Part shown: positions 553 to 63,568 of the stretch, piece after piece | Position numbering within the stretch: position 1 is the first letter of the stretch | How the letters are laid out: each line of letters starts with the position of its first letter | Assembly (NCBI GenBank): GCA_035763745.1 | Contig: DASUAO010000014.1 | Span: forward strand, 1,252-65,251 | Direction of reading: 5' to 3' | Length of the DNA: 64,000 nt | From: Acidimicrobiia bacterium | GTDB lineage: Bacteria > Actinomycetota > Acidimicrobiia > IMCC26256 > PALSA-555 | Position numbers and translations under genes: made by a program | The notes under the pieces: model-generated | Told to the model about the DNA's origin: nothing | What the model saw: only the letters and a program-made list of their open reading frames with translations | The model's database searches: none

Positions 553-600
553 GACCCCCCGCTGACACTCGTGCTCGACACGGGCCCGGAGAGGCACCCC

Positions 601-8834: not shown

Positions 8835-8884
8835 GGTTGGATCCTACGGGTCGAGCGAGACCCGCCTCCCGACGGAGCAGGGGC

Positions 8885-9094: not shown

Positions 9095-9104
9095 CGCGTC
9101 GAGC

Positions 9105-15153: not shown

Positions 15154-15161
15154 CCGATCCC

Positions 15162-26525: not shown

Positions 26526-26536
26526 GGGCGCCCACG

Positions 26537-27259
26537 TTAGAGCGAGTCCCCGGCGGACATCAGCGTGCCCGGGTACGGCGTCATGAGCTCTTCGCGCCAC
26601 TCGGTGAGGAACTCACGGGCCCGCGCCCGCCAGGTCGCGATGCGGGCATCGGTCCCTTCGGTCGCGGCCTCCATGTAGCGGCAGTGGTCTTCGGTGCTGG
26701 TGGCCCAGATCGTCATGACCTCGGTGTCGGTGAGGAGCACCTCGTAGCTCCCGACCAGCGTGTGGCCGTACTCGGCTGCGATCGGTGCCCACTCGCTTCG
26801 GACGGCGGCCAGGTACTCCAGCGCGGCCCCGGCGCGGCACCGTGACAGCTCGTGCACGAAGACGCTGGCGTGGATCTCCGCGGCGGTGAGGTCGGCCATC
26901 GACGGACACCCCGGAGCACCGGCCATCACGCGGTCGATCCCGCCGGTACGCACCTTCAGCGCGTCGCGCCACCAGTCCTCGAGCTCGGGCGTGCGGGTCC
27001 GCCGCAGGTTCGTGCGCTCCATCAGCGCGCGCCAGCCGTTCCAACCGTCCACGCACTCCCACAGGTTGATCACCTGGGGCCAGCGCCCGGTGGATCCCAT
27101 CGTGTACCAGGTACCGACCAAGCCGAGCGTGCCCCCCGACGCATCGCCCGCGCCGCGGGCGGCGGTCAGCTCCATGTACGGCATCGCACCTTCGCCGACG
27201 ATGTCGATGATCTCGTGGAGGTACACGTTGCGCGTCGTACCGACCGGAGAACGAGGCAT
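26537..27259 (-). CDS. NIPSNAP-like tandem alpha+beta-barrel protein
   Basis: M139 of track ORF 26537..27673. Two repeats of a G-x-L-V-G-x-(W/Y) pattern: LGLVGTWYTMGSTGRWPQVINLWEC and HTLVGSYEVLLTDTEVMTIWAT. Family call is from memory. Confidence 0.5.
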   Translation of the reverse strand: MPRSPVGTTRNVYLHEIIDIVGEGAMPYMELTAARGAGDASGGTLGLVGTWYTMGSTGRWPQVINLWECVDGWNGWRALMERTNLRRTRTPELEDWWRDALKVRTGGIDRVMAGAPGCPSMADLTAAEIHASVFVHELSRCRAGAALEYLAAVRSEWAPIAAEYGHTLVGSYEVLLTDTEVMTIWATSTEDHCRYMEAATEGTDARIATWRARAREFLTEWREELMTPYPGTLMSAGDSL

Positions 27260-37323: not shown

Positions 37324-38931
37324 TCAGCGTCGGTCGAAGGTCACGCCGGCGCGTTCGCGGTCCCACGTCGTCGCGGTCACGCCGTCGTCGCGCAGCTCGT
37401 ACTTGAGGACCCGACCGACCGGGTTGCGCGGCAGGTCGGACCGGAACTCGACGAAGCGGGGTACTGCGAAGTACGGAACGTGGTCGATCGCCCATCGACA
37501 GAGCGCTTCCTCCGACAGCGTGGACCCTTCCACCAGGACTGCCGTCACCTTCACCTCGTCCTCGCCCAGCTCGCTCGGCACCGAGTGCACCACGACGTCG
37601 GCGATGTCCTCGTGACCGTGGAAGATGCGTTCCATCTCGAAGCTGGAGATGTTCTCACCGCGCCGGCGGAGGTAGTCCTTCTTGCGGTCGACGAAGTACA
37701 GGAAGCCGTCGTCGTCGAGACGCCCCAGGTCGCCGGTGTGGAACCAGAGGTTGCCCAGGACCGAGAGCGTGTCCTCGGGGCGGCCCCAGTAGCCGGTGAA
37801 CATGACGTTCGGGCGCGTCGGCCGGCACACGATCTCCCCGATCTCGCCGGCGGCGACGGGGATGTCGCGCTCGTCGACGAGGCGGACCTCGAACTCGTGG
37901 TCGTTGGGCTTGCCTGCTGCGCCCGGTGGGTTCACCTCGCCCGCCGGGAGCATCGAGATCAGCGAGGCCTCGGTGAGGCCGTAGCCCCCACTGAAGGTCG
38001 CGCAACCGAAGCGGTCCCGCCAGAGCGCATCGGTCGCCGGCGGCATCGGTGCCGCCGCGCACACCCGGAGCCGGTGCCCGGCCTGGTCCGGGTGATCCTC
38101 GGCCTCGGCGATCAGGATCGCCAGCGAGCCGAGGAGCGACACCATGGTCGCCCCGGTTCGCTTGACCTCGGGCCAGAAGCGCGAGACCGAGAACCGACGC
38201 ACGATCGCCGCGCTCCCACCGTTGATCAGCGTCCCGACGACACAGATCGAGATCGCGTTGAAGTGGAACAGCGGCAGCGGCGTCAGGACGACGTCGTCGG
38301 GACGGCGCTCCCAGGCGCGGGAGATCTGCTCGGCGAGGGCCACGATGTAGTGCTGCGGGAGCATGCAGCCCTTCGAGGGCCCGGTGGTGCCCGCGGTGTA
38401 GATGAAGCACGCCAGGTCGTCGGGGCGGACGTCGATGCCCTCGACCGCCCGCTCGGACGCCGACGCGAGCACACCGTCCCACGCGTGCGTCGCGACCGCC
38501 GCGATCTCGGTATCGGGCTCGCCGGTCACGATGCACGACGTGAGGTCGGGCATGTCGGAGCCGGCGATCGCGGCGACGCGCGAGGCGAAGTCGCCCTGGA
38601 CGACGATCACCTTCGACCCCGAGTCGGCGAGCTGGTGGCGGAGGAACTCGCCCTTGTACGCGGTGTTGATCGGGACCTGGATGGCCCCCAGCTTCAGCGC
38701 GGCGAAGAACGTGATCACCTGGGCCGGCGAGTTCTCGAGCAGCGTCGCCACGCGATCCCCGCGCCCGACGCCCAGGTCGGTGAGGACATGGGCGAGGCGA
38801 TTGCTCGCCGCGTCGACCTCCCGGGCCGAGAACGCGTCGCCCTCGAAGTCGAGGTACGTGCCGTCGGGATCGGTCCCCAGGCGGTGCGCGAGCGCATCGA
38901 GCACGGTCGCGTCGTTGCCGAGGGCTCCCAT
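37324..38931 (-). CDS. AMP-dependent acyl-CoA synthetase/ligase
   Basis: 535-aa track ORF. YTAGTTGPSKG, GYGLTE, GDLGRLDDDGFLYFVDRKKDYLRRRGENIS and VPRFVEFRSDLPRNPVGRVLK. Confidence 0.9.
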   Translation of the reverse strand: MGALGNDATVLDALAHRLGTDPDGTYLDFEGDAFSAREVDAASNRLAHVLTDLGVGRGDRVATLLENSPAQVITFFAALKLGAIQVPINTAYKGEFLRHQLADSGSKVIVVQGDFASRVAAIAGSDMPDLTSCIVTGEPDTEIAAVATHAWDGVLASASERAVEGIDVRPDDLACFIYTAGTTGPSKGCMLPQHYIVALAEQISRAWERRPDDVVLTPLPLFHFNAISICVVGTLINGGSAAIVRRFSVSRFWPEVKRTGATMVSLLGSLAILIAEAEDHPDQAGHRLRVCAAAPMPPATDALWRDRFGCATFSGGYGLTEASLISMLPAGEVNPPGAAGKPNDHEFEVRLVDERDIPVAAGEIGEIVCRPTRPNVMFTGYWGRPEDTLSVLGNLWFHTGDLGRLDDDGFLYFVDRKKDYLRRRGENISSFEMERIFHGHEDIADVVVHSVPSELGEDEVKVTAVLVEGSTLSEEALCRWAIDHVPYFAVPRFVEFRSDLPRNPVGRVLKYELRDDGVTATTWDRERAGVTFDRR

Positions 38932-49129: not shown

Positions 49130-50683
49130 CTACGAGTAGCGCTCGCGGAGCTCGTGCTTGAGGACCTTGCCGGCAGGGTTGCGCGGCAGCGCGTCGACGA
49201 CCTCGAGCCGCTCGGGGACCTTCTGCTTGGCGAGTCCTTCACCCGTGAGGAAGTCGAACAGCTCCGGGAGCGTCGGCGCCTCGGCGTCCTCGGCGACGAC
49301 GACCACTGCGCACGCGCGCTCCCCCGTCTTCTCGTCCGGCAGGCCGATCACGGCGGCGTCGGCGATCTGCGGGTGCGTGAACAGGAGATCCTCCAGCTCC
49401 TTCGCGGAGATGTTCTCGCCGTGACGAATGATGATGTCCTTCACCCGACCAGTGATGCGGACATGCGAGTCGGCGGGGTCCATGACCCCCAGGTCGCCGG
49501 TGCGGAACCAGCCGTCCCCGTCGAACGCGTCGGCGTCGAGCGACGAGTCGAGATAGCCCTTGCAGATCTGGGGACCCTTGGCCCGGATCTCGCCTTCCTC
49601 GCCGGGACCGGCGACGCTGCCGTCGAGCTTCACGAAGCGCAGCTCGACACCGGGCGTCGGCGCGCCTTCGGTCTCGGCGAGCTGCACGTCGGAGTCACGC
49701 ACCGAGTTCATCGTGAGGATCGGCGCTTCGGTGAGCCCGTAGCCCGAGACCACGCCCACGCCGCCGAGCTCCTCGCGGACCTCGTAGTGCAGCTGCGGTG
49801 GCTTCGGCGCGCCGCCCCCGGGATAGGCGCGCACGTCGGGGAACAACGGCGTGTCGGGCTGCGCCCGCTGCGCGGCGAGGTACGCCATGTGGAACGGCGT
49901 GCCCGCGCCTGCGAGCGTGAGGTCCTCGCGCTGGAGCACCGGGATCGTCGTCTGCGGGACGAACGCCTCGACGAACACACATCGGCATCCGGTGATGAGC
50001 ATCGTGTAGAGCCACCCGATCCCGCCGATATGGGTGAACGGGAACACCATCGCGGCCGTGTCCTCGTCGGTGATCTCGAGTGCCTCGATCATCCCGGTCG
50101 CCGACGCCTTGACGGTGAGGTCGGTGTGCCGCGCGCCCTTCGGGTCCGCCGTCGTGCCGGACGTGTAGAAGATCCAGCGGACGGGCGCGTTCTGCGGCGT
50201 CACCGCGGTCGGCGGCGCGGGCAGGGTCGCCGGGTCCCCCTCGGGAAGCGCCCGGTCGACGATCAGCACTTCGAGGTCGGGACGGTCGCCCGCGATCGCC
50301 CGGGCCTCGTCGCCGAACGCGCGGCCCTTCCAGTCCTCCGGCACGACGAGCAGTCGAGCCCCGGTCTGGGCCGTGATGAACCCCACCTCACGCGTGCCGA
50401 GGATCGGCAGCATCGGGTTCTGGACCGCGCCGAGCCGCGCCAGCGCGGCGACCAGCACCGCGGACTCGAGCCAGGTCGGGAGCATCCACGACACCGGGAC
50501 ATCAGGACCGACGCCCATCGCATGCAGTCCCGCGGCGGCGCGCTCGGCCGCGTCGCGGAACTCCGCGGCGGTCAGCGTGCGACCGTCCTCGTCGATCGCG
50601 AGCATCAGGTCGGGTGAGTGCTCTGCACGCGCGAGGACGAGCTCCCACAGCCCCTGGTGCGCGGTGAACGGGTCCTGGGCCAT
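49130..50683 (-). CDS. AMP-dependent acyl-CoA synthetase/ligase
   Basis: M24 of track ORF 49130..50752 (MAQDPFTAHQGLWELV...). YTSGTTADPKG, GYGLTE, GDLGVMDPADSHVRITGRVKDIIIRHGENIS and LPRNPAGKVLK. Confidence 0.9.
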   Translation of the reverse strand: MAQDPFTAHQGLWELVLARAEHSPDLMLAIDEDGRTLTAAEFRDAAERAAAGLHAMGVGPDVPVSWMLPTWLESAVLVAALARLGAVQNPMLPILGTREVGFITAQTGARLLVVPEDWKGRAFGDEARAIAGDRPDLEVLIVDRALPEGDPATLPAPPTAVTPQNAPVRWIFYTSGTTADPKGARHTDLTVKASATGMIEALEITDEDTAAMVFPFTHIGGIGWLYTMLITGCRCVFVEAFVPQTTIPVLQREDLTLAGAGTPFHMAYLAAQRAQPDTPLFPDVRAYPGGGAPKPPQLHYEVREELGGVGVVSGYGLTEAPILTMNSVRDSDVQLAETEGAPTPGVELRFVKLDGSVAGPGEEGEIRAKGPQICKGYLDSSLDADAFDGDGWFRTGDLGVMDPADSHVRITGRVKDIIIRHGENISAKELEDLLFTHPQIADAAVIGLPDEKTGERACAVVVVAEDAEAPTLPELFDFLTGEGLAKQKVPERLEVVDALPRNPAGKVLKHELRERYS

Positions 50684-50732
50684 CGGAGTGCTCCTGTTCT
50701 CGGGTCGACGTCTCGGTGGTGACAGCGGTCGC

Positions 50733-51512
50733 TCAGCCGCAGGTGATGCCACCGTCCATGCTCACGATGCTCCCGATCATGTACCGGCCGTCCTCGGAGG
50801 CGACGAACGCGATGAGCCCGGCGACCTCCTCGGGCTCGGAGTACCCGATCGGCGAGGTGATGCCGGCGAACTCCTCGGGCTTGGCGCCCTCGGGGAACCC
50901 CCAGGTCGAGATCATCGACGTCTTCATCCCACCGGGAGCGACGGCGTTCACGCGCACGCCCTTCGCCCGGTACTCGACCCCCAATGCCCGGGTGAGGTTG
51001 ACGACTCCACCCTTCGACGCGCAGTAGGCGGCCGAGTAGGGCTGGCCCATGAGTCCAGCGTTCGATGCGACGTTCACGATCACGCCGCCCTCGTCACCCC
51101 GACGGATCTTCCCGGCCCCGGCAGCCCGTTCGAGCAGGTGCGGCAGCACCGCGCGGCACATGAAGAACGTGCCACTGAGGTTCACGCCGATGATGCGGTT
51201 CCAGCTCTCCGGTGACTCTTCCTCGCTCTTGACGAACTTCCCGATGCCGGCGCAGTTCACGAGCACCGACGGCGCGCCGAGCCGCTCGACGACCGACGCC
51301 ACGGCCGCCTCGACGGACCCGAAGTCGCTCACGTCGACGGCGTGCGCGCTCGCGGCGTCGCCGATGCCGGTGGCGGTCTCGGCGGCGGCGGCCTCGTCGA
51401 GGTCGAGCACGGCCACTCGGGCGCCCTCCTCGGCGAGGCGGCGCGCCGTCGCCCGGCCGAGGCCGGAGCCCGCGCCCGTCACGATCGCGACCTGGTCGGT
51501 GAAGCGCGGCAT
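50733..51512 (-). CDS. SDR family oxidoreductase (3-oxoacyl reductase-like)
   Basis: 259-aa track ORF. AIVTGAGSGLGRA, LVNCAGI, YCASKGGVVNLTR and SIVSMDGG. Confidence 0.88.
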   Translation of the reverse strand: MPRFTDQVAIVTGAGSGLGRATARRLAEEGARVAVLDLDEAAAAETATGIGDAASAHAVDVSDFGSVEAAVASVVERLGAPSVLVNCAGIGKFVKSEEESPESWNRIIGVNLSGTFFMCRAVLPHLLERAAGAGKIRRGDEGGVIVNVASNAGLMGQPYSAAYCASKGGVVNLTRALGVEYRAKGVRVNAVAPGGMKTSMISTWGFPEGAKPEEFAGITSPIGYSEPEEVAGLIAFVASEDGRYMIGSIVSMDGGITCG

Positions 51513-51573
51513 TCGTACCCCTCGTGGTGGCTGTGGTCGGCAGCGGTGGGACGCCGACGCTCGACCGGCGAAT

Positions 51574-51588
51574 CTAACTGGCCGTCAG
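51574..51588. promoter_or_regulatory. degenerate copy of the palindrome (CTaACtggcCGTCAG, spacer one nt short)
   Basis: In the divergent SDR/ligase region, about 50 nt upstream of the ligase GTG at 51639. The right half CGTCAG is perfect. The left half has one mismatch and the spacing is N5 between CTAAC and GTCAG instead of N6. Confidence 0.3.
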
Positions 51589-51638
51589 ATCGGGCACCAC
51601 AGCGGGCATCACGCCTCGCACCGGTAGCCTCGGCGGCC

Positions 51639-53165
51639 GTGTCCGGCACAACATCCACCACACGGCTGATCGGCGATCTCCTGCGCGACGCGGCCGCCGC
51701 GCACCCCGACCGGGACGCCTACGTCCGGGCCGACAAGCGGTCGAGCTACGCCTGGCTCGACCGGGCTGTCGACGGGTTCGCCGCGACGCTCCTCGACCGG
51801 GGCGTCGCGCGCGGCGACGTGGTCGTGCTCATGCTCCCGTCGTCGACCAAGTTCGCGGTCTGCTACCTGGGGGCGCTGCGCGTGGGCGCGATCACCTCGG
51901 CGATCAACCTCCGCCTCGGCCCGCGTGAGCAGGCGAGCATCATCGCCCGCACCGAGCCCAAGGTGACGGTCCTCGGCGACGGCGCGACGCTCCCCGAGGC
52001 CGTCGACCCCGGGCAGGTCCTCCCGGTCACCGACCTCAAGGAGGCGTTCGAGGCCGAACCGCCGGCGCGGCTCCCCCACCTCGACCCCACCGACCCGACG
52101 TGCATCGTGTGGACCAGCGGCACCACCGGCGAGCCCAAGGGTGCGGTCTACGACCACGAGCGCCAGGCGGCGATCTCGCGCAACGTCGGCGAGCTCACCA
52201 GCCCCGGCGACCGCCGCCTCGTCGTGCTCCCCTTCCCGCACGTCGGGTACATGACCCGCATGTGGGACGAGCTCGCGCACGCCACCACGATCGTCCTCGG
52301 CCGAGAGCCGTGGTCGGCCGAGGAGACGCTCCGGCTCATCCGCGACGAGGGCATCACCATGGCCACCGGCGTCCCCACGCAGTGGCAGCGGGTCCTCGAC
52401 CACCCCGACGTCGCCGTCACCGACTTCTCGGGCCTGCGCGTCGCGGGGATCGGCGCGTCGACGATCCCTCCCGAGCTGGTGCGTCGGATGCGAGCCACCC
52501 TCGGCTGTCCGGTGATCACGCGCTACACGAGCACGGAGGCCGGGGTCACGACCAGCACCCTCGCCACCGACCCGCCGGACGTGATCGCGCACACGGTCGG
52601 GCGACCGACCGCCGAGGTCGAGCTCCGGATCGTCGATGCCGCGACCACCACCGACCAGCCCAACGGCGAGGTCGGCGAGGTCCTCTCCCGGTCGCCGGCG
52701 ATGATGCGCGGCTACTGGCGCGATCCGGACCTCACCGCGACCGTCATCGACCCCGACGGGTGGCTGCACACCGGCGACCTCGGCTTCATCGACCCCGACG
52801 GCAACCTGCGCCTCGTCGGCCGTCTCAAGGAGATGTACATCCGCGGCGGGTACAACATCTACCCCGCCGAGGTGGAGAAGGTGCTGAGCGAGCACCCCGC
52901 GATCGCGGCGGCGGCGGTCGTCGGTGCGCCCGACGCCGACCTCGGCGAGATCGGCGTGGCGTTCGTGGTTCCGGAGCCCGACGCCGACCGAGGCGACGTC
53001 GAGCTCGCGATCCTGCGAGCCTGGTGCAAGGAGCGACTCACCGACTACAAGGTTCCCGACCGGGTGCTGCTCGTCGACGACCTCCCCACCACCGCGATGC
53101 TGAAGATCGACAAGCGGGCGCTGCTCGACCGAGCGGCGGCCGCCCCGAGCAAGGAGCGAGCGTGA
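51639..53165 (+). CDS. AMP-dependent acyl-CoA synthetase/ligase
   Basis: In-frame GTG of track ORF 51342..53165. WTSGTTGEPKG, YTSTEAG, GDLGFIDPDGNLRLVGRLKEMYIRGGYNIYP and YKVPDRVLLVDDLP. Confidence 0.9.
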   Translation: MSGTTSTTRLIGDLLRDAAAAHPDRDAYVRADKRSSYAWLDRAVDGFAATLLDRGVARGDVVVLMLPSSTKFAVCYLGALRVGAITSAINLRLGPREQASIIARTEPKVTVLGDGATLPEAVDPGQVLPVTDLKEAFEAEPPARLPHLDPTDPTCIVWTSGTTGEPKGAVYDHERQAAISRNVGELTSPGDRRLVVLPFPHVGYMTRMWDELAHATTIVLGREPWSAEETLRLIRDEGITMATGVPTQWQRVLDHPDVAVTDFSGLRVAGIGASTIPPELVRRMRATLGCPVITRYTSTEAGVTTSTLATDPPDVIAHTVGRPTAEVELRIVDAATTTDQPNGEVGEVLSRSPAMMRGYWRDPDLTATVIDPDGWLHTGDLGFIDPDGNLRLVGRLKEMYIRGGYNIYPAEVEKVLSEHPAIAAAAVVGAPDADLGEIGVAFVVPEPDADRGDVELAILRAWCKERLTDYKVPDRVLLVDDLPTTAMLKIDKRALLDRAAAAPSKERA

Positions 53166-53991: not shown

Positions 53992-54831
53992 ATGCGGGTC
54001 GCGCGGTTCGAGCATGGAGGCTCGATCGCGGCCGGCGTCGTCGAGGGCGACGAGGTCGTCGACCTCGGACCGGTCGAACCCATCAGCCTCCTCGTCGACG
54101 GCATCGAAGCGCTCACCGCCCTCGTCGGCGACACCACGGCTCGCCATCCGCTGGCCGACGTCCGGCTCCTCGCACCCGTGGCCAACCCGTCGAAATTCCT
54201 GGCGATCGGCATCAACTACTCGGACCACATCCGAGAGACGGGTCGCGACGCTCCCACCTTCCCGATCTTCTTCAACAAGCAGGTGTCGTGCGTCACCGGC
54301 CCCTACGACCCGATCGTGATCCCACGGGTCTCCTCCGACGTCGACTACGAGGGCGAGCTCGGGATCGTCATCGGCCGCGAGTGTCGGAGCGTGCCCGCCG
54401 AACGTGCACTCGAGCACGTCGCCGGGTTCGTCGTGATCAACGACGTGACCGTGCGCGACTGGCAGTACAAGGCGCCGACCTGGACGCTCGGGAAGTCGTT
54501 CGACACGCACGGTCCCACCGGCCCGTGGATCGTCACCACCGACGAGGTCGGCGATCCCCAGGACCTTCGTCTGCGCACCCTGCTCAACGGTGAGGTCATG
54601 CAGGACGAGTCGACCGCCGAGATGGTGTTCGACTGCGCGACCCAGATCGAGATCCTCTCGACCGCCTGCACCCTGGTGCCCGGCGACCTGATCTCGACCG
54701 GCACCCCGGCCGGCGTCGGGTTCGTCCGAGAGCCGCCCGTGTTCCTCCGGCCCGGCGACGTGGTACGGATCGAGATCGAGCGGGTCGGTGCGATCGAGAA
54801 CCCGGTCGTCGACGCCCCGACGATCGCATGA
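53992..54831 (+). CDS. fumarylacetoacetate hydrolase (FAH) family protein
   Basis: 279-aa track ORF. KFLAIGINYSDH, DYEGELGIVIGR, GKSFDTHGPTGPW and LISTGTPAGVG. Confidence 0.9.
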   Translation: MRVARFEHGGSIAAGVVEGDEVVDLGPVEPISLLVDGIEALTALVGDTTARHPLADVRLLAPVANPSKFLAIGINYSDHIRETGRDAPTFPIFFNKQVSCVTGPYDPIVIPRVSSDVDYEGELGIVIGRECRSVPAERALEHVAGFVVINDVTVRDWQYKAPTWTLGKSFDTHGPTGPWIVTTDEVGDPQDLRLRTLLNGEVMQDESTAEMVFDCATQIEILSTACTLVPGDLISTGTPAGVGFVREPPVFLRPGDVVRIEIERVGAIENPVVDAPTIA

Positions 54832-55190
54832 GCACCGAGAGGCGGCCCCGGCTGCGCGACCTCGGGACCGACCCGGACGTGCGCTTCACCTACGCCAACG
54901 AGCGCACGTTCCTCGCCTGGAGCCGCACGTCGTTGGCGCTCGTGGTCACCGGCATCGCCGCGACCCAGCTCCTCCCGAAGTTCGACATCGAGTTCGGGAG
55001 GCGCCTCATCGGCGTTCCACTCATCGTCCTCGGCGCCGTGCTCGAGGCGGCGAGCTATCGCGCCTGGTACCGGAACGAGCGCGCCATGCGGGTCGGCGAG
55101 CCGCTCCCCTCGTCGCAGATGACGGTGATCCTCGCGATCGGCATCGGCATCATCTCGGTGATCGCGACCGCCGTCGCGATCGCCGGCTGA
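54828..55190 (+). CDS. DUF202 (YidH-like) membrane protein
   Basis: 120-aa track ORF; the ATG overlaps the FAH stop (ATGA). YANERTFLAWSRTSLALVVTGIA is the DUF202 signature as I remember it. Three TM segments. Confidence 0.75.
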   Translation: MSTERRPRLRDLGTDPDVRFTYANERTFLAWSRTSLALVVTGIAATQLLPKFDIEFGRRLIGVPLIVLGAVLEAASYRAWYRNERAMRVGEPLPSSQMTVILAIGIGIISVIATAVAIAG

Positions 55191-55202
55191 GGCGCGGATT
55201 CG

Positions 55203-55547
55203 ATGCCGTTCGATCCGGTCCTCGGAGACGAGGTCCACGAGGAAGGCCCTGGCCTCTACGCGGAACGCACCCGTCTCGCCTGGACCCGCAGCGCGATCGC
55301 GCTCCTGGCCGCGTTCGCGATCCTCGTCCGCCGGGTCTGGACCCGCGGCTACTACCCCCTCGATCCCGTCGCGTTCGCGTTCCTCGGTCTGGCCGCGATC
55401 GGCTGGGGCATCGGGATCTTCGGCTGGCGCCTCGCCCACCGACGGGAGGACGACGTGTCCCCGCGCTCGCCGAGCGAGCTGCTGGCGGTGTCGAGCGGCA
55501 CCCTCGCGGTCGTCGTCGCCGGCCTCGTCGTGACCTTCGCCGGATAG
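55203..55547 (+). CDS. DUF202-domain membrane protein
   Basis: 114-aa track ORF. YAERTRLAWTRSAIALLAAFAIL, followed by two more TM segments. Confidence 0.7.
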   Translation: MPFDPVLGDEVHEEGPGLYAERTRLAWTRSAIALLAAFAILVRRVWTRGYYPLDPVAFAFLGLAAIGWGIGIFGWRLAHRREDDVSPRSPSELLAVSSGTLAVVVAGLVVTFAG

Positions 55548-55556
55548 GTTCGTCCC

Positions 55557-56564
55557 GTGCTCGTCGACCACTTCCTCCGCGCCGACCTCGCCGACATCGC
55601 GGCGACCGCGCGGGACCTCGAGGCGCTCGGCTTCCACGGCCTCTACACCGCCGAGGGCCCGCACGAGCCGTTCCTGCCGCTCGCGCTCGCGGCCGAGCAC
55701 ACGACTCGCCCGCAGCTCTTCACGAACATCGCGGTAGCGTTCGCCCGCAGCCCGATGGACCTGGCCCAGATGGCCGACGGCCTCCAGCGGTCGTCGGAGG
55801 GGCGGTTCGTGCTCGGGCTCGGCTCGCAGATCCGCCCCCACATCGAGCACCGCTTCTCGATGACGTGGAGCCGCCCGGTCGCCCGGATGCGCGAGATGAT
55901 CCAGGCCGTCAAGGCGATCCAGACGGCCTGGAACGACCAGGCGCCGCTGGCGTTCCGCGGCGAGATCTACCGTCACACGCTGATGACGCCGTTCTTCGAC
56001 CCGGGTCCGAACCCGCACGGCCCGCCGCCCGTCTGGGTCGCCGCGCTCGGTCCCAAGATGACCACCTGCGCCGCCGAGTTCGGCGACGGGCTGCTCGTCC
56101 ACCCGTTCCACACCGGCCGCTTCATGACCGAGCACGCCGCAGTGTCGGTGGCGGAGGGACTCGGGCGCGCCGGACGCGACCGCGCCGACTTCACGGTCTC
56201 GGCCACCACGATCGTGTGCACCGGGAGCACCGACGAGGAGTTGGAGGTCGCGCGAGCCGGGAGCAGGATGCTGCTCGGCTTCTACGGCTCGACGCCTGCG
56301 TACCGGGTCACGCTCGACGCGCACGGCTGGGGCGACCTCCAGACCGAGCTGAACCGCATGACGAAGGAAGGTCGCTGGGACGAGCTGTCGAGCGTCATCC
56401 CCGAGGAGGTGGTCGACGCGATCGTCGTGACCGGAGCGCCCGGTGAGATCGCCGGCCTGCTCGACGCTCGCTACGAGGGCACGGTCGACCGGGTCGGCCT
56501 GTCGATGCCGTACCAGACGAGCCGCGACACCATCGCTGCGCTCGTGGCAGGGTTCAGGGCCTGA
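55557..56564 (+). CDS. LLM-class F420-dependent oxidoreductase
   Basis: 335-aa track ORF (GTG start). LGFHGLYTAEGPHEPFLPLALAA, GRFVLGLGSQIRPHIEHRF and VWVAALGPKMTTCAAEFGDGLLVHPF. Confidence 0.85.
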   Translation: MLVDHFLRADLADIAATARDLEALGFHGLYTAEGPHEPFLPLALAAEHTTRPQLFTNIAVAFARSPMDLAQMADGLQRSSEGRFVLGLGSQIRPHIEHRFSMTWSRPVARMREMIQAVKAIQTAWNDQAPLAFRGEIYRHTLMTPFFDPGPNPHGPPPVWVAALGPKMTTCAAEFGDGLLVHPFHTGRFMTEHAAVSVAEGLGRAGRDRADFTVSATTIVCTGSTDEELEVARAGSRMLLGFYGSTPAYRVTLDAHGWGDLQTELNRMTKEGRWDELSSVIPEEVVDAIVVTGAPGEIAGLLDARYEGTVDRVGLSMPYQTSRDTIAALVAGFRA

Positions 56565-56603: not shown

Positions 56604-56957
56604 ATGCCCAAGGGGATCTTCCTCGCTCTCGCGAACCCGACGAGCGACGACGTCGACGACGAGTTCAACCAGTGGTACGACGACGTGCACATGCGTGAGG
56701 TGCTCGCGCTCCCCGGCGTGCAGTCGGCTCGTCGGTTCAAGCTGGCCGACACGCAGGTCATGCCCGGCGACGATGCGGCCGGGCGGCGCTACCTCGCGCT
56801 CTACGAGGTCGAGGTCGACGACTGGGCCGACTTCGCGGCCGCGAACCAGAACGGGTTCGCCGAGGGGAAGATCACGGTGAACGCCGATCTCCTCCAGCTC
56901 GACCCGATGGTCATGACGATGATCTTCGAGGAGATCACGCCGGAGACGAAGGCCTAG
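56604..56957 (+). CDS. small alpha+beta-barrel (EthD/DUF4286-like) protein
   Basis: 117-aa track ORF, with AGGAG 7 nt upstream. DDEFNQWYDDVHMREVLALPGVQSARRFKL...RYLALYEVE. Confidence 0.65.
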   Translation: MPKGIFLALANPTSDDVDDEFNQWYDDVHMREVLALPGVQSARRFKLADTQVMPGDDAAGRRYLALYEVEVDDWADFAAANQNGFAEGKITVNADLLQLDPMVMTMIFEEITPETKA

Positions 56958-56975: not shown

Positions 56976-57902
56976 TCAGAGCCCGGCGACCTCGGGAAGG
57001 ATCTCGTCGCCGAAGATCGCGAGGTTCGCGAGCACCTCGTCCCGGCGGTCGCCCGCGACGCTCACCGTCGCGTACGTGACGCCGACGTCGGCGAGCGCCC
57101 GGATGCTCTCGACGACCGATGCCGGTTCGACCGGCGCGTTGGTGAACATGTCGAGGCCGAGCGGCATGAACACGATCTCCAGGCGCTCGGTCCGACCGAC
57201 CTCGGCCGCGTACCCGTGCGCCCGCGTGATCCGCGCGGCCAGGTCGTCGAGCGACGCGAGCGACGGGGTGTGCAGGCGCTTCTCGGCCTTCGCGGGGCTC
57301 GGCATCGGGGCCCACCCGTCGGCGAGGTCCACGGCCCGTCGCACGGCCCGCATCGAGTTCCCGCCGATCCAGATCGGCGGGCCACCGGGCTGGGCCGGGC
57401 GGGGCAGGCTGGTGTTCCCCGCCGCGGTGAAGTGGAGGCCGTCGATCGCGACGCTCTCCCCCGTCCAGGTGGCCCTCATCACCCGGATCGCCTCGTCGGT
57501 GAGGTCGTTGCGCTCGTCGAAGTCGACGCCGAGCGCGTCGAACTCCCCTTCCAGGTACCCCGCGCCGATCCCGAGCACGACCCGACCTGCCGAGAGCGCG
57601 TCGAGGGTGGCGACGGTCTTCGCGAGCAGGAACGGGTTCCGGTAGGCGGGGATGCACAGGTTCGTCAGGAGACGGACGGAGTCGGTCGCCGCCGCCGCGA
57701 ACGCCAGGGCGACGAACGGGTCGAGTGTGTGGTGTCCGCCGGTCGCGAGCCAGCGATCGTCGGGGATCGGGTGCTCGGTGACGAACACCGCGTCGAACCC
57801 GGCCCGCTCGGCAGCATGGGAGATCTCGGCGATCGCGCTCGCACCCGCGAGCTCGTCGAACCGGTCGAGTCGGTGCGTCGGGAGACCGACCGAGACCCTC
57901 AT
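56976..57902 (-). CDS. LLM-class (probably F420-dependent) oxidoreductase
   Basis: C-terminal 308 aa of the 972-aa track ORF 56976..59894 (MRVSVGLPTHRLDRF...). AGFDAVFVTEHP, GRVVLGIGAGYLEGEF and PPIWIGGNSMRAVRRAVDLADGWAP. The start overlaps the MFS stop (ATGA). Confidence 0.85.
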   Translation of the reverse strand: MRVSVGLPTHRLDRFDELAGASAIAEISHAAERAGFDAVFVTEHPIPDDRWLATGGHHTLDPFVALAFAAAATDSVRLLTNLCIPAYRNPFLLAKTVATLDALSAGRVVLGIGAGYLEGEFDALGVDFDERNDLTDEAIRVMRATWTGESVAIDGLHFTAAGNTSLPRPAQPGGPPIWIGGNSMRAVRRAVDLADGWAPMPSPAKAEKRLHTPSLASLDDLAARITRAHGYAAEVGRTERLEIVFMPLGLDMFTNAPVEPASVVESIRALADVGVTYATVSVAGDRRDEVLANLAIFGDEILPEVAGL

Positions 57903-59437
57903 TCGAGCACCGCACCCTCGAGCGCCACGGCGAGGTCGTCGCCCGGCGACTCCAGCGCGGCGTGTGATCGCAGCGGGAGCTCCCGCAGCGTGATCGTCAG
58001 CACCAGCCCGACGATCGCGACGGGGACGCACACCAGGAACACTGTGTGCAGCGACCGAGCAAAGGCATCGGCAACACCCTCGCGCACTGCGGGCGCGAGG
58101 TCGACCAGCGTCTCGGGGCGTCCTCGGATCTTCGACGGGTCGAGGCTCGTGCCCTCTGGCACGAGCCGCGGCAGCCAGAACGCGAGTCGGCTGTTGAGGA
58201 CGCTGCCGAGCAGCGCGAGTCCGACCGCGGAGCCGAACTGCCGGAAGAACATCGACATCGAGGTCGCGACCCCGAGGTCGCGGGGTTCGACGGCGTTCTG
58301 GATCGCGAGGATCAGCGGCTGCATCGCGAGGCCCATCCCGAACCCGGTCACGGCCGCACCCACCAGGACCTGCAGCGGCTCGCTGTCGACGTCGAGCCGG
58401 AGCAGCAGCCCCAGGCCGGCGAGCACCATGACGAGCCCCATGATCGGGTAGCGCCGGTAGCGCTGCGATCGGTCGATCAGGCGCCCGACGAGCACCGTGG
58501 CCGTGACCGTCGAGCCCATGAACGGGATCAGGTAGAGGCCCGAGTCGGTCGGGCTGATGCCATCGACGAACTGGAGGAACGCGGAGAGGAAGTAGAGCCC
58601 GGCGAAGAACACGAGACCCAGCGCGAGGTTGAGCGCGAGGCACACGCGTGCAACCGAGATCCGGAAGAGGCGCGCGGGCAGGATCGGCTCGGGGGCACGG
58701 CGCTCCCACCACACCAACGTGGCGAGGAACGTCAGCGTGCCGCCGCCGAGCCCGAGGATCAGCGGAGACCCCCACGGCTCGCGCGAGCCGCCCCACGACG
58801 TCAGGAAGACGACGCACGACACGACTCCGACGATCAACGACGCGCCCACGTAGTCGACGCGGTGCTCGGTCCGTTTCGGCGGCAGGTCGAGGGTCCGGTG
58901 CACGATCACCATCGCGACGAGGCCGATGGGGACGTTCACGAGGAACGCCCACCGCCACGAGAGATGCTGGGAGAAGAGCCCGCCGAACAGCGGTCCGGCG
59001 ATGCTGGAGATCGCGAACACGAAGCCCGAGTACCCGATCCACCGCCCGAGGTCGCGCGCGGGGACCAGGTCGGCGACCATCGCCATCGGCAGCGCGATGA
59101 GCCCACCGGCGCCGAGCCCCTGCACGGCGCGGAAGAAGATCAGCTGGGTCATCGAGGCTGCGAGTCCGCACAGGACCGACGCCGCGAGGAAGATCACGAT
59201 GGCGACGAGGAAGATGCGCTTGCGACCGTAGAGGTCGCCGAGCTTGCCGTAGAGCGGTCCGCTCGCCATGCCGGTGAGCAGGTACGCGGTGGCGACCCAC
59301 GACAGGTCGCGCAGCCCGCCGAGGTCGCTGACGATCGTCGGGAGCGCCGTGGCCACGAGCGTGGTGTCGAGCGCCGCGATCGCGTTGCCGAGCATGAGCC
59401 CGAAGAAGATCAGGAGCACTCGCCGCTGGTCGGGCAC
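57899..59437 (-). CDS. MFS transporter, DHA2 (EmrB/QacA, 14-TMS) type
   Basis: In-frame GTG of track ORF 57899..59671, with GAGGA 6 nt upstream. LDTTLVATALPTIVSDLGG, GKLGDLYGRKRIFL, RAVQGLGAGG and about 14 hydrophobic segments. Confidence 0.85.
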   Translation of the reverse strand: MPDQRRVLLIFFGLMLGNAIAALDTTLVATALPTIVSDLGGLRDLSWVATAYLLTGMASGPLYGKLGDLYGRKRIFLVAIVIFLAASVLCGLAASMTQLIFFRAVQGLGAGGLIALPMAMVADLVPARDLGRWIGYSGFVFAISSIAGPLFGGLFSQHLSWRWAFLVNVPIGLVAMVIVHRTLDLPPKRTEHRVDYVGASLIVGVVSCVVFLTSWGGSREPWGSPLILGLGGGTLTFLATLVWWERRAPEPILPARLFRISVARVCLALNLALGLVFFAGLYFLSAFLQFVDGISPTDSGLYLIPFMGSTVTATVLVGRLIDRSQRYRRYPIMGLVMVLAGLGLLLRLDVDSEPLQVLVGAAVTGFGMGLAMQPLILAIQNAVEPRDLGVATSMSMFFRQFGSAVGLALLGSVLNSRLAFWLPRLVPEGTSLDPSKIRGRPETLVDLAPAVREGVADAFARSLHTVFLVCVPVAIVGLVLTITLRELPLRSHAALESPGDDLAVALEGAVLE

Positions 59438-59490
59438 CGGATTCCTCTGATCGGAAGACCATCGCTCTCGACGGCCGGGAGCGCCGATGG

Positions 59491-59504
59491 TAGAACGCGT
59501 TGCA
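59491..59504. promoter_or_regulatory. KstR-type TetR operator TAGAACgcGTTGCA (TnnAACnnGTTnnA)
   Basis: In the 112-bp divergent region between the MFS start (59437) and the NTF2-like start (59550). Confidence 0.5.
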
Positions 59505-59549
59505 CTCCGGGCGGATCGGCCGTCCGGGCACGAGGGTCGAGGGGGATCC

Positions 59550-60002
59550 GTGGGCCAGTTCACCCGTGAGGAGATCGAGGCGGCGTTCACCCGCTTCCAG
59601 GAGCGCGCGGCCGCGGCGGGCACGAGCGGCGACTGGACCGAGTGGGCGGACTGCTTCACCGAGGACGCCAAGTACTACGAGCACCACTACGGCCGGATGG
59701 AGGGGCGCCAGGAGATCCTCGAGTGGATCACCAAGACCATGGCAGAGCCCATCAACGCCGACATGAGCTCGTTCCCGATCGACTGGTACATGGTCGACGA
59801 GGAGCGGGGCTGGATCATGTGCCAGGTCGCGAACGTCATGGACGACCCGGGCGACGGCAGCGACCACCGCGAGGTGAACTGGACCCTCTTGCACTACGCC
59901 GGCGACGGCCGCTTCTCCTACGAGGAGGACATGTACAACCCCGTGGAGTTCGGCCAGATGATCAAGGGCTGGCTGAAGGCGAAGAAGGCCGCCGCCTCGT
60001 AG
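59550..60002 (+). CDS. NTF2-like (SnoaL-like) family protein
   Basis: In-frame GTG of track ORF 59487..60002, with GAGGGGGA upstream. FTREEIEAAFTRFQERAAAAGTSGDWTEWADCFTEDAKYYEHHYG... Confidence 0.7.
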   Translation: MGQFTREEIEAAFTRFQERAAAAGTSGDWTEWADCFTEDAKYYEHHYGRMEGRQEILEWITKTMAEPINADMSSFPIDWYMVDEERGWIMCQVANVMDDPGDGSDHREVNWTLLHYAGDGRFSYEEDMYNPVEFGQMIKGWLKAKKAAAS

Positions 60003-60045
60003 GCGACGCCGCCCCGGGGCGGCTCCAGCCGATCCCGCCCAGAAC

Positions 60046-60059
60046 TAGAACCTGTTATA
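60046..60059. promoter_or_regulatory. KstR-type TetR operator TAGAACctGTTATA overlapping a TATATT -10-like hexamer
   Basis: Lies in the only AT-rich patch of the window (agaactagaacctgttatattttc, 60041-60064), 56 nt upstream of the LLM GTG at 60115. TATATT is at 60056-60061. Confidence 0.55.
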
Positions 60060-60114
60060 TTTTCGGGTCAGTCATCTCACCCCACCCACCTGTGGCGATC
60101 GAGGACGGTGTTCC

Positions 60115-61299
60115 GTGGAGTTCGGCATCTTCAACAGCCTGTACACACCCCACCAGGCGTACGAGCACGTCGACGACGAGTGGTCGGTCGAGCACCAACG
60201 CCTCATGGACGAGGTCGCCTGGACCGTCGCGTCCGACAAGGCCGGCTTCAAGTACTCGTGGGCGACCGAGCACCACTTCCTCACCGAGTACTCGCACCTC
60301 TCGGCCAACGAGGTGTTCATGCCCTACATCGCCGCGAAGACCGAGCGCATCCACATCGGGAGCGGGATCATCAACGTCACGCCGCCGGTCAACCACCCGG
60401 CGCGCATCGCCGAGCGTGTCGCGATGATCGACAACCTCTCGGGCGGACGCTTCGAGTTCGGTGTGGGGCGCGGGTCGTCCAGCACCGAGCAACGCGGGTT
60501 CGGGATCGAGGACCCCGAGCTCACGAAGCGGATGCTCGACGAGGTGATGCCCGAGTTCAAGAAGATGTGGAGCTCGAACGAGTACAGCTTCGAGGGCGAG
60601 TTCTTCTCGATGCCGCCGCGCAACGTCCTCCCCAAGCCCTACAGCGATCCGCACCCGCCGATGTGGGTCGCGGCCGGGAACCCCAGCACGTTCGAGAAGG
60701 CCGCCCGGATGGGGATCGGGGTGCTGTGCTTCACGACCGGCTCACCCGAGGCGCTGAAGCCCCTCATCGAGATCTACAAGACGACGATCGAGGACGCGGA
60801 GCCCGTCGGCGACTACGTGAACAACAACGTGATGGTGACGAGCCAGATGCTGTGCCTCGAAGACGGTCAGCGCGCCCGCGACATCGCGACGAACATGACC
60901 TCCGGCTACCAGAACTCTCTCGTGTTCCGCTACCTGGACACGTTCCCGAAGCCCGAGGGCATCCCCGCGTGGCCGACCCTGATCCCCGAGCCCACGCCCG
61001 AAGGCCTCGAAGAGGCGATCAAGGCGCATCTGGTGATGGTGGGGACGCCCGACGAGGTGTCGGCGTCGGTGCGGGAGTACGAGCTGGCCGGAGCCGACCA
61101 GGTCACGTTCGGCATGCTCTCGACCACGATGCCCATCGAGGTCGCGTGTGAGGCCGTCGACACGTTCGGGAAGCACGTCATCCCCCAGTTCGACAAGGAC
61201 GAGGTCCACTCCACCACCCGCCAGCGCGAGGCCTACGTGGCCGAGCGGGGCCCGATCGCGAAGCGCTCCCTCGGCCGGGTGACGGACACCGTCCTCTGA
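60115..61299 (+). CDS. LLM-class flavin-dependent oxidoreductase (luciferase-like monooxygenase)
   Basis: 394-aa track ORF (GTG start, GAGGA 9 nt upstream). MEFGIFNSLYTP...AGFKYSWATEHHFLTEYSHLSANEVF...GRFEFGVGRGSS...PPMWVAAGNPSTFEKAARMGIG. Confidence 0.88.
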   Translation: MEFGIFNSLYTPHQAYEHVDDEWSVEHQRLMDEVAWTVASDKAGFKYSWATEHHFLTEYSHLSANEVFMPYIAAKTERIHIGSGIINVTPPVNHPARIAERVAMIDNLSGGRFEFGVGRGSSSTEQRGFGIEDPELTKRMLDEVMPEFKKMWSSNEYSFEGEFFSMPPRNVLPKPYSDPHPPMWVAAGNPSTFEKAARMGIGVLCFTTGSPEALKPLIEIYKTTIEDAEPVGDYVNNNVMVTSQMLCLEDGQRARDIATNMTSGYQNSLVFRYLDTFPKPEGIPAWPTLIPEPTPEGLEEAIKAHLVMVGTPDEVSASVREYELAGADQVTFGMLSTTMPIEVACEAVDTFGKHVIPQFDKDEVHSTTRQREAYVAERGPIAKRSLGRVTDTVL

Positions 61300-61406: not shown

Positions 61407-62132
61407 TCAAGGAGTGCGGTCGAGGCGCCAGCCGGTGTTGTCGAGCCAGAGGCGGTGGCGGGGGCCTTCGGCGTCGGGGTCGCCCGACTCGTAGCCGGCG
61501 TCGCCCGCCCACATCGCCGCGATCCCCTGCCCGCCCTTCGCGATGCGGGTCTCGTAGTAGGTCGGCTCGCGCGCGTCGGCGTCGGCCATCAGCGCGTCGA
61601 CGCTCGAGAACTCGGCCAGGTAGTGCAGAGTCATCCACGTCGGGGGTGCGAGCTCGATCTCCAGCGCGTCGCGTCGCGCGAGCGCGTCGTCGGGGCGCAT
61701 CCACCCGCTCTCATGGATCTCTCCGTGGTCGATCGCCACCGCACCCTCGGGCGCCGGCGCCGCGAAGAACCAGGTGGCGAACCGCTTGGGCGTGATCGCC
61801 GGCGGGACCCAGTGCGCGAACCAGGCGAGCGACTCGCGGTCGACGACGAGGCCCGCCTCCTCGGCGGCTTCCCGCACCGCCGCTCTCGCCGCCGCGTCGA
61901 CGACGTCGACGGCATCGGCCCGGTCGGCCTCGTCGATCCGGCCGCCGGGGAACACCCACATCCCCCCGAACGCGAGCTTCGAGTTCTTCCGGAGCATCAG
62001 CGTCTCGACCGCGCCGTCGTGATCGCGCACGAGCACGACGGTCGCCGCGGGGATCGCGTCGCCTTCCTCGCGACGCCCCTCGCGGAGCCACCGTTCGAAG
62101 CGATTCTCGTCGGTCACGTCACCCCGGCTCAC
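61407..62132 (-). CDS. NUDIX hydrolase
   Basis: 241-aa track ORF (GTG start; GTG at 62117 is an alternative). Nudix box GGMWVFPGGRIDEADRADAVDVVDAAARAAVREAAEEAGL. Confidence 0.85.
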   Translation of the reverse strand: MSRGDVTDENRFERWLREGRREEGDAIPAATVVLVRDHDGAVETLMLRKNSKLAFGGMWVFPGGRIDEADRADAVDVVDAAARAAVREAAEEAGLVVDRESLAWFAHWVPPAITPKRFATWFFAAPAPEGAVAIDHGEIHESGWMRPDDALARRDALEIELAPPTWMTLHYLAEFSSVDALMADADAREPTYYETRIAKGGQGIAAMWAGDAGYESGDPDAEGPRHRLWLDNTGWRLDRTP

Positions 62133-62176
62133 CTAGCGTGCGTCGAGTCAACCACACCCTCCCGAGGAGCCGACAG

Positions 62177-63568
62177 TTGCCCCACGACCCCAGCCCGACC
62201 GGCGAGCTCCTCACCGAGACGGCCCGCCTCGCCACCGAGTTCCTCGCCGGGGTCCCCGACCGGTCGCTCGCCCTCGACGTCAACCGCGAGCAGCTCACCG
62301 AGATCTTCGGCGCGTCGATTCCCGACGAAGGCGAAGTAGCGATCGAGGTCCTCGCGCGCCTCGCCCGCGTCGACCCGGGGATCATGGCGACCGTCGGCCC
62401 CCGCTACTTCGGGTTCGTCATCGGCGGTTCGCTCCCTGCAGCGCTCGCAGCCGACTGGCTGGCGACGGCCTGGGACCAGAACGCAGGGCTGTTCGCCATC
62501 AGCCCCGCCGGGTCCGTCGTGGAAGAGGTCGCCGGCCGCTGGATCATCGACCTCCTCGGGCTCCCGGCTCAGGCGTCGGTCGGCTTCGTCAGCGGCGGCC
62601 AGACCGGCAACACCGTGGCGCTCGCCGCAGCGCGCCATCACGTCCTCGCGGCCGCCGGCTGGGACGTCGAGGCCGACGGGCTCAACGGCGCCCCACCGGT
62701 CACCGTGGTCAGTGGCCGCGAACGCCACGCGACGATCGACTCCTCGCTGCGGCTCCTCGGGCTGGGCCGCTCGTCACTCGCACTCGTCGACACCGACGAC
62801 CAGGGCCGAGCCGACCCCGACGCCGTCGATGCGGCGCTCGGTGCCGCACCGGGTCCGGCGATCATCTGCACACAGGCCGGTGACGTGAACAGCGGATGCT
62901 TCGACGACTTCTCCCGGATCTGCGATACGGCGGCGTCTCACGGCGCGTGGGTCCACGTCGACGGCGCGATCGGGCTCTGGGCCGCCGCGAGCGACGCCCA
63001 CCGCGACCTCATGCGCGGCGCCGAGCGCGCCGACTCCTGGTCGGTCGACGCCCACAAGCTCCTGAACGTCCCGTACGGCTCGGGCCTCGTCTTCTGTCGC
63101 CACCCCGACTCGCACCAGGGTGCGATGAGCATCCAGACGAGCTACCTGCCCGCGTCCGACTTCGAGGGACCCCGCGATCCGGCGAACTGGACGACCGAGC
63201 TGTCACACCGTGCGCGCGGCTTCGCAGTGTGGGCGGCACTCCGGTCGCTCGGGCGACGCGGCGTCGCCGACCTCGTCGACCGCTGCTGTGCGCACGCGCA
63301 GCGCTTCGCCGAGCGGCTCGGTGACGCCGAGGGAGTCGACATCCTCAACGATGTCGTCTTCGACCAGGTGCTGGTCCGCTTCGGCGGATCCGACGAGCAC
63401 ACGCGCGCCGTCATCACGCGACTCCAGCACGAAGGCACCTGCTGGTTCGGCGGGACGACCTGGCGCGGCGTCGGCGCGATGCGCATCTCGGTCGCGAACT
63501 GGTCGACCACGGCAGAAGACGTCGATCGCGCGGTCGACGCGATCCTGCGCGCCCACTCGACTCCCTAG
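62177..63568 (+). CDS. PLP-dependent (group II) decarboxylase family protein
   Basis: Track ORF 62138..63568. I prefer TTG 62177 (GAGGAG 7 nt upstream) because GTG 62138 leaves only 5 nt to the divergent NUDIX start. SGGQTGNTVAL, HVDGAIG, and SWSVDAHKLLNVPYGSG (PLP lysine). Confidence 0.8.
   Translation: MPHDPSPTGELLTETARLATEFLAGVPDRSLALDVNREQLTEIFGASIPDEGEVAIEVLARLARVDPGIMATVGPRYFGFVIGGSLPAALAADWLATAWDQNAGLFAISPAGSVVEEVAGRWIIDLLGLPAQASVGFVSGGQTGNTVALAAARHHVLAAAGWDVEADGLNGAPPVTVVSGRERHATIDSSLRLLGLGRSSLALVDTDDQGRADPDAVDAALGAAPGPAIICTQAGDVNSGCFDDFSRICDTAASHGAWVHVDGAIGLWAAASDAHRDLMRGAERADSWSVDAHKLLNVPYGSGLVFCRHPDSHQGAMSIQTSYLPASDFEGPRDPANWTTELSHRARGFAVWAALRSLGRRGVADLVDRCCAHAQRFAERLGDAEGVDILNDVVFDQVLVRFGGSDEHTRAVITRLQHEGTCWFGGTTWRGVGAMRISVANWSTTAEDVDRAVDAILRAHSTP

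Follow-up and report, generated by a model that had tools for sequence, protein, structure and literature searches.

The window analysed here, a stretch of 64,000 nucleotides (64 kb) from contig DASUAO010000014.1 of an uncultured Acidimicrobiia bacterium, contains two palindromic boxes that resemble the operators of KstR, a TetR-family repressor of lipid and steroid catabolism in mycobacteria whose regulon is among the best studied in actinobacteria and governs both the use of cholesterol by Mycobacterium tuberculosis and steroid bioconversion in industrial strains. A gene map based on third-position GC content, Pfam and NCBIfam places a DHA2-family MFS transporter of 512 amino acids (57899-59437, minus strand; Pfam MFS_1, 7.8e-56; TIGR00711 EmrB/DHA2, 240.7 bits, above the cut-off) divergently from a SnoaL/NTF2-like protein of 150 amino acids (59550-60002, plus strand; Pfam SnoaL_4 and SnoaL_2), downstream of which is encoded an LLM-class flavin-dependent oxidoreductase of 394 amino acids (60115-61299, plus strand; Pfam Bac_luciferase, 2.4e-49). 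The MFS gene, with a GTG start at 59437, is the first of a leftward operon, and its stop codon is overlapped (ATGA) by the start of a gene for an F420-dependent LLM-class oxidoreductase of 308 amino acids, here called LLM3 (56976-57902, minus strand; TIGR03619, 250.4 bits against a cut-off of 166.9; Pfam Bac_luciferase), which is therefore taken to be the second gene of that operon. The start of the SnoaL-like gene was placed at a GTG codon after GAGGGGGA because the N-terminus that it gives, (M)GQFTREEIE, is conserved across the loci of relatives described below; the in-frame sequence upstream is not conserved.

Box 1 (TAGAACGCGTTGCA, 59491-59504) lies in the 112-bp gap between the divergent MFS and SnoaL-like genes. 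Box 2 (TAGAACCTGTTATA, 60046-60059) lies in a second gap of 112 bp, between the SnoaL-like gene and the gene of the 394-residue LLM, 56 bp 5' of the LLM start codon. Both boxes had been pointed out in a preliminary description of this DNA, and their sequences, coordinates and gene context (the first between divergent MFS and NTF2-like genes, the second before the LLM gene) agree with the sequence and with the gene map. We consider it probable, at roughly three chances in four, that these boxes are operators of a trans-acting TetR repressor of the KstR family, which would control the MFS-LLM3 operon, the SnoaL-like gene and the LLM gene.

Palindromic boxes and their conservation

For the KstR motif, TnnAACnnGTTnnA, 47 intergenic sites have been listed from M. 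smegmatis and M. tuberculosis, many of them confirmed by electrophoretic mobility shift assay (EMSA) or quantitative PCR (Kendall et al. 2007, PMC1995591). A symmetrised log-odds matrix, derived from the 14-bp cores of the 47 sites in Table 3 of that paper, assigns 23.3 bits to box 2 and 20.5 bits to box 1, inside the range of the training sites (12.9 to 28.7 bits, median 24.3), and the proposal that both fit the 14-bp KstR consensus holds. Next in rank comes an intragenic site of 11.9 bits, and none of 200 dinucleotide shuffles of the window yielded a site of 20 bits or more. The pattern TNNAACNNGTTNNA, like the core palindrome TnnAACnnGTTnnA, is matched exactly by boxes 1 and 2 and nowhere else in the 64 kb (expected number, 0.04; two matches were reached in none of 100 shuffles). 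Eight further copies of the octamer AACNNGTT are present in the window, all within coding regions, in agreement with the earlier remark that no other AACnnGTT box is intergenic. Box 2 is also the most AT-rich stretch of the window at lengths of both 20 and 30 nucleotides, as had been noticed, with A or T at 15 of 20 positions compared with 12 of 20 for the runner-up. The sequence GGTCAGTCATC (60066-60076), just 3' of box 2, contains a GTCAG motif that the preliminary description had flagged elsewhere; it is kept in L005, a relative with 98% identity, and not in L006 or L007, and so gives no evidence of function.

To follow the boxes beyond the window, one genome per species was scanned, which resulted in 80 loci (numbered with the prefix L) containing orthologs of the 394-residue LLM at 66-98% protein identity. 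Most are from metagenome-assembled genomes (MAGs) of Acidimicrobiia/Acidimicrobiales, including Microthrixaceae, and a few are from Frankia and Pseudofrankia. Conservation in relatives, on which the preliminary description had staked its proposal, is extensive: a site of at least 13 bits is located within 300 bp 5' of the LLM ortholog in 65 of the 80 loci, typically as TAGAACGTGTTGCA, TGGAACCTGTTGCA, TAGAACCTGTTACA or TGAAACGTGTTCTA, and the commonest of these, TAGAACGTGTTGCA, has exactly the core sequence of the Rv0551c/Rv0552 operator, which is EMSA-positive (PMC1995591). Altogether the 80 loci contain 133 sites of at least 13 bits, whereas shuffled sequences contain 1 to 10. The position of box 1, 5' of the SnoaL-like gene, is boxed in 15 further loci (16 with the window), synteny of the SnoaL-LLM pair extends to about 35 loci, and an MFS ortholog adjoins in nine loci that also have box 1. 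Across these LLM-anchored loci, the LLM gene itself is the one most consistently boxed. Two loci have additional repeats near the boxes: in L008 (approximately 9332-9420) CAGCCAGATCGAAAG occurs about five times on the stretch from box 1 to the start of the SnoaL-like gene, and in L013 (approximately 9850-9890) CTAGGACCTCGAAA is repeated just 5' of box 2.

The genes that follow a box in the relatives are of several kinds. Elsewhere in the 80 loci, a box is found directly 5' of genes for FadA5-type steroid 3-ketoacyl-CoA thiolases (NF005889, 660-674 bits, above the equivalog cut-off). Boxes also precede several cytochrome P450 genes, a pair of acyl-CoA dehydrogenase (ACAD) genes, a PRK07798 acyl-CoA synthetase gene followed by an NMO-family gene, and genes encoding a PRK07792 SDR, an amidohydrolase and an ABC-transporter binding protein. 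Genes of the FadA5, P450, FadD, FadE, SDR and NMO types are kinds found in the mycobacterial KstR regulon.

Promoter geometry and a possible mechanism

When the upstream regions were aligned on the box and hexamers of the actinobacterial form TANNNT were read by register, two designs became apparent. In the first, the right half of the box doubles as a -35-like TTGCAn, and all 34 of the 34 boxes ending in TTGCA are followed, after a spacer of 16-18 nucleotides, by a TANNNT hexamer such as TAGCGT or TACGAT. In the second, found in 13 loci including the window, the box ends in GTTA[CT]A and its right end is overlapped by the hexamer (TACAGT, TATAGT, TACATT, TACAAT or TATATT). The -10-like TATATT that had been described as overlapping the right half of box 2 is indeed present at 60056-60061 (plus strand), in the register kept by these 13 loci, and would belong to the proposed LLM promoter. 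At box 1, a leftward -10-like hexamer, TACCAT (59487-59492, minus strand), overlaps the first two bases of the box and is assigned to the proposed promoter of the MFS-LLM3 operon; a leftward TANNNT in this register (TACCAT, TAGCAT, TACGAT or TACGCT) is present in 15 of the 16 loci. The conserved registers of box and hexamer thus support the promoter-occlusion geometry that had been suggested, for hexamers that are themselves predicted from sequence. A scan of positions 59300-60300 for sigma-70 promoters and terminators, using a consensus of the E. coli type, found nothing.

A second conserved element, CTCGACGG (59467-59474, plus strand), accompanies box 1 in the majority of the 16 loci that were aligned. 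Its TCGACG is 17 nucleotides 5' of the TAGAAC half of box 1, and it may be the -35 element of a SnoaL promoter directed rightward, with TAGAAC in the role of the -10. The CTCGACGG core is contained in TCGCTCTCGACGG (59462-59474), a 13-mer that occurs exactly once in the window; the core is repeated four times in L047, and the 16-mer CATCGCTCTCGACGGC recurs in two unrelated loci, L087 and L088 (at about 5390), where an amidohydrolase gene follows it. The TCGCTCTCGACGG/CTCGACGG stretch could belong to a promoter, as its -35, or could be another site of regulation. Since neither the window nor the loci show a clear enrichment of CTCGACGG, it was discarded as an independent repeated motif and retained solely as a possible -35. 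In several loci of the second design (L057-L063), just 21-25 nucleotides separate the box from the start codon, a distance suggestive of leaderless mRNAs.

A mechanism that would suit these arrangements is one in which a repressor dimer, putatively encoded elsewhere in the genome, occupies each 14-bp box. At box 1 it would cover back-to-back divergent promoters, with TACCAT serving the leftward MFS-LLM3 operon and the TAGAAC half-site perhaps serving as the -10 of the SnoaL-like gene. At box 2 it would cover the -10-like TATATT of the LLM promoter and would also stop read-through from the SnoaL-like gene. RNA polymerase would be occluded by the bound repressor until a catabolite, possibly of the acyl-CoA type, entered the C-terminal pocket and freed the repressor, whereupon the transporter, the F420-dependent LLM, the SnoaL-like protein and the flavin-dependent LLM would be switched on together. 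In this scheme we infer, from sequence, the identity of the regulator and its presence in this genome, the repression, the ligand and the transcription starts.

Candidate regulator and alternative explanations

The preliminary description stated that no TetR gene is adjacent to the boxes, and this is the case. The window contains two TetR genes, one of the TetR_C_38/EthR-like type at 25884-26600 (minus strand) and one at 1-597 (minus strand), which is truncated at the edge of the window and has an acyl-CoA ligase gene as its divergent neighbour. Both match EthR-like or generic TetR structures rather than KstR and neither adjoins the boxes, so both were set aside as the regulator, which is therefore presumably trans-acting. 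A TetR gene consistently beside the LLM was also sought by iterative hidden Markov model searches of all open reading frames in the 80 loci; these found 15 TetR-like frames, none of them consistently adjacent.

A candidate family does emerge from three loci, L055 and likewise L053 and L056, in which the gene order is box, ACAD, ACAD, KstR-like TetR, TIGR03619 LLM and LLM ortholog. In this order the KstR-like gene is the second one before the LLM ortholog. Aligned over 183 residues, the KstR-like TetR of L055 shares 35% identity with M. tuberculosis KstR, and its best NCBIfam match, over the full length, is the KstR family NF033703 at 154.8 bits (next family, 48). Members of this family are 30-40% identical to M. 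tuberculosis KstR and share its Pfam architecture (TetR_N and TetR_C_20). Most of the helix-turn-helix is invariant between the KstR-like TetR and KstR (GGY..QMR.VA.RA.VA.GT.YRYF.SK.H.L), including the recognition-helix residues GT[VL]YRYFxSK. Acidimicrobiales MAGs commonly encode members of this family, some of which JGI labels 'cholesterol catabolism regulator'. In a metagenome sample of 80 contigs encoding KstR-like proteins, on which 76 genes were scored, a box is located within 200 bp 5' of the KstR-like gene in 21 cases and just past its stop codon in eight; these contigs contain 49 sites in 556 kb, far above chance. A box beside KstR-like genes is, as judged from sequence, an autoregulation signature, and it is this signature that links the KstR-like TetR family to the box.

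Several observations weigh against the assignment of the boxes to a KstR-family repressor. No KstR-like gene is present in the 64-kb window, where tblastn with M. tuberculosis KstR found nothing. The 154.8 bits of the L055 protein compare with an NF033703 equivalog cut-off of 280 and with 335.1 bits for M. tuberculosis KstR, and because they fall below this cut-off the KstR-like proteins are regarded as distant homologs, their orthology being undemonstrated. A TetR_C_38 gene lies directly beside the box in L053 and L055. In the lineage of the window itself (L005-L026, loci of about 21 kb), strong boxes of at least 16 bits are found only at the MFS/LLM3/SnoaL/LLM module, and no steroid gene is linked to a box in these loci. 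Only about a third of the sampled KstR-like genes (29 of 76) have an adjoining box, and one KstR-like subgroup, of the P0151/P0232 type (L085-L088, with P0151 and P0232 on megabase-scale contigs), has no box within 20 kb. Members of the boxless subgroup (L085-L088, L105 and L108) have a conserved element of their own, GAAACCCCTG(C/A)NGAGTAGGGTGA, approximately 20-50 nucleotides 5' of the gene, which may be a different operator or promoter.

Some of the same facts would suit a regulator outside the KstR family, for example one of the TetR_C_38/EthR-like type, with the likeness to the KstR motif being a matter of convergence: there is no KstR-like gene in the window, one KstR-like subgroup is without nearby boxes, the TetR_C_38 gene of L055 and L053 ends just 44 bp before the box, and genes of this type are neighbours of KstR-like genes in L053, L055, L085 and L086, with divergent orientation in the last two. 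Such a regulator appears unlikely, however, because the TetR_C_38 gene of the window has no upstream box (the best nearby site scores 5.9 bits) and in no locus is a box so placed that a TetR_C_38-like gene could regulate itself through it, whereas promoters of the KstR-like family are boxed far above chance. Moreover, the helix-turn-helix of the TetR_C_38 protein in the window is visibly unlike that of KstR, whereas the recognition helix of the KstR-like family is almost unchanged.

The palindrome might instead be a conserved part of promoters, or a structure in transcripts, that is maintained for its AT-rich, -10-like or -35-like content and not as an operator. The box does always overlap either a -35-like TTGCA or a -10-like TANNNT, and box 2 is the top AT-rich spot of the window. 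This explanation is nevertheless difficult to sustain and is judged very unlikely, since the same 14-bp palindrome precedes many unrelated genes (LLM, SnoaL, FadA5, P450, FadD, ACAD, SDR and TetR), its register relative to the promoter hexamers varies (34 loci have it over the -35 and 13 over the -10), its conserved positions are the symmetric AAC/GTT cores and not the promoter hexamers, and it matches experimentally bound KstR operators base for base. As for the notion that both boxes are chance matches in GC-rich DNA, the motif is admittedly short, with eight specified bases, but two matches were found where 0.04 were expected, no shuffle of the window contained a site of 20 bits, and the strong phylogenetic footprint of 65 boxed loci out of 80 excludes chance, to which we assign practically no weight. 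Operators of a KstR-family repressor thus remain the preferred interpretation of the boxes.

Whether this regulation concerns steroids is another matter. Taken together, the sequence comparisons support a predicted KstR-family regulon, but not, for this organism, a steroid regulon. No classical steroid ring-degradation gene was found in the window, and a steroid is accordingly no more than one candidate for the physiological signal.

Extent of the module and comparison with known systems

The preliminary description extended the KstR-like regulon over the whole of a module at 53-61 kb. This extent is upheld for the part that stands behind the boxes, namely the MFS-LLM3 operon, the SnoaL-like gene and the LLM gene (56976-61299), but not for the block at 51.3-57.0 kb that consists of an acyl-CoA ligase (51342-53165), a FAH-family hydrolase (53992-54831), two DUF202 proteins (54828-55547), a TIGR03617 F420-dependent LLM (55557-56564) and an EthD-like protein (56604-56957), all on the plus strand. 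The scan of the window with the KstR matrix found no site above 12 bits anywhere near this block, and because the block is convergent to the box-controlled operon and has no site, extension of the regulon to 51-57 kb is unsupported. The ligase-FAH block is syntenic with the box module, but its membership of the regulon lacks support. On the other side of the 394-residue LLM are genes for a NUDIX hydrolase (61407-62132, minus strand) and a PLP-dependent decarboxylase (62138-63568, plus strand).

The window as a whole is rich in genes of lipid and acid catabolism. There are six AMP-binding acyl-CoA ligase genes in the 64 kb (229-2115, 12665-14182, 14718-16709, 37324-38931 on the minus strand, 49130-50752 on the minus strand, and 51342-53165), together with several acyl-CoA dehydrogenases, a thiolase, a carboxyltransferase, aldehyde dehydrogenases and amidohydrolases. 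None of these acyl-CoA ligase genes or accompanying lipid and acid catabolism genes in the window has a KstR-type box. A protein of 730 amino acids (6642-8834, minus strand) contains two tandem acyl-CoA dehydrogenase units, with matches to two N-terminal and two C-terminal domains, and looks like a fused double ACAD.

The 394-residue LLM has no NCBIfam family above its cut-off, and its closest solved structure is 7BIP (3.6e-33). It has more than 5000 homologs, of which the top 120 are 72-100% identical to it; an identical protein is annotated from an Acidimicrobiia MAG. A search of a plasmid collection for LLM orthologs in genera known to have KstR found no close ortholog, the best match being 44.6% identical (Embleya). 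An LLM of the TIGR03619 (Rv2161c) type accompanies it both in the window, in the divergent MFS operon (56976-57902, minus strand), and in L055, directly 5' of the LLM (8848-9966), which hints that the TIGR03619 LLM and the 394-residue LLM are a functional pair.

KstR and its operator have been placed in Mycobacterium, Nocardia and Rhodococcus (Kendall et al. 2007, PMC1995591), and also in Nocardioides, in the paper on KstR of Nocardioides simplex, where LLM, SnoaL and MFS targets are unmentioned. Within the literature searched, no paper names KstR together with Acidimicrobi*. Very probably, as far as sequence can indicate, the boxes represent a known operator logic in another bacterial class, where the regulator would have diverged and the targets are new, highly conserved and uncharacterised genes. 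A more far-reaching and quite tentative proposal is that a distant KstR-family repressor controls, in Acidimicrobiia, a compact module outside classical cholesterol catabolism, consisting of the DHA2 MFS transporter, the TIGR03619 LLM, the SnoaL-like protein and the 394-residue LLM. Because this LLM is the gene most consistently boxed, from Acidimicrobiia to Frankia, it could perform an undescribed oxygenation in the breakdown of sterols, isoprenoids or lipids.

If this were true, the abundant Acidimicrobiia of soil and freshwater would be unrecognised degraders of sterol, isoprenoid or lipid compounds. The box would provide a simple sequence handle with which to rebuild regulons of lipid and steroid catabolism in MAGs of organisms that cannot be cultured. 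The widespread, uncharacterised LLM monooxygenase and its SnoaL partner would become candidate catabolic enzymes with a testable regulatory context, and the placement of the operator over the -35 or the -10 element according to lineage would offer a natural series of promoter designs in which operator re-use can be studied.

Among systems that act in a similar manner are the TetR repressors that respond to acyl-CoA, such as PsrA of Pseudomonas and Vibrio and FadR of Bacillus and Thermus, which likewise bind as dimers to palindromes at promoters of beta-oxidation genes and are released by acyl-CoA. The PsrA motif is GAAAC-N2-4-GTTTC, and some boxes of the orthologs (TGAAACGTGTTTCA) are also compatible with GAAAC..GTTTC. 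The KstR-like protein, however, scores 28 bits on PsrA and 38 bits on Bacillus FadR, compared with 154.8 bits on the KstR model. Steroid catabolism is also repressed by KstR2 (Rv3557c), a TetR-family protein that is freed by a CoA thioester and recognises the operator AnCAAGnnCTTGnT; it resembles the proposed system in acting on a 14-bp palindrome, but its half-site is CAAG, whereas that of the boxes described here is GAAC. The KstR2 operator AnCAAGnnCTTGnT was rejected as an explanation, having no exact match in the window and a single copy with one mismatch inside the SnoaL-like gene, which is at chance level (equalled in 14 of 100 shuffles).

The closest comparison is with KstR itself (Rv3574 of M. 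tuberculosis, MSMEG_6042 of M. smegmatis and KstR of Rhodococcus jostii RHA1). It differs from the system proposed here in several respects. The host is an uncultured Acidimicrobiia bacterium, outside the Mycobacteriales; the candidate regulator shares just 35-40% identity with M. tuberculosis KstR and does not reach the NCBIfam equivalog cut-off; the DHA2 MFS transporter, the TIGR03619 F420-dependent LLM, the SnoaL-like protein and the 394-residue LLM were matched to no gene of the published regulon; and no ring-degradation genes were seen. KstR orthologs were also defined by synteny, being encoded divergently from a fadE34-like gene (Kendall et al. 2007, PMC1995591), whereas the candidate regulator is not. 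The two systems nevertheless have much in common. The 14-bp palindrome is the same, with scores inside the validated range; the operators overlap predicted promoter elements including the -10, as described for the kstR promoter, and are located at putative divergent promoters, sometimes in pairs, as at Rv3570c/Rv3571 (both PMC1995591); boxes in the relatives precede types of genes that belong to the mycobacterial KstR regulon; the candidate regulator gene in the relatives often has a box of its own; and the candidate regulator has the same TetR_N and TetR_C_20 domains as KstR and a nearly identical recognition helix.

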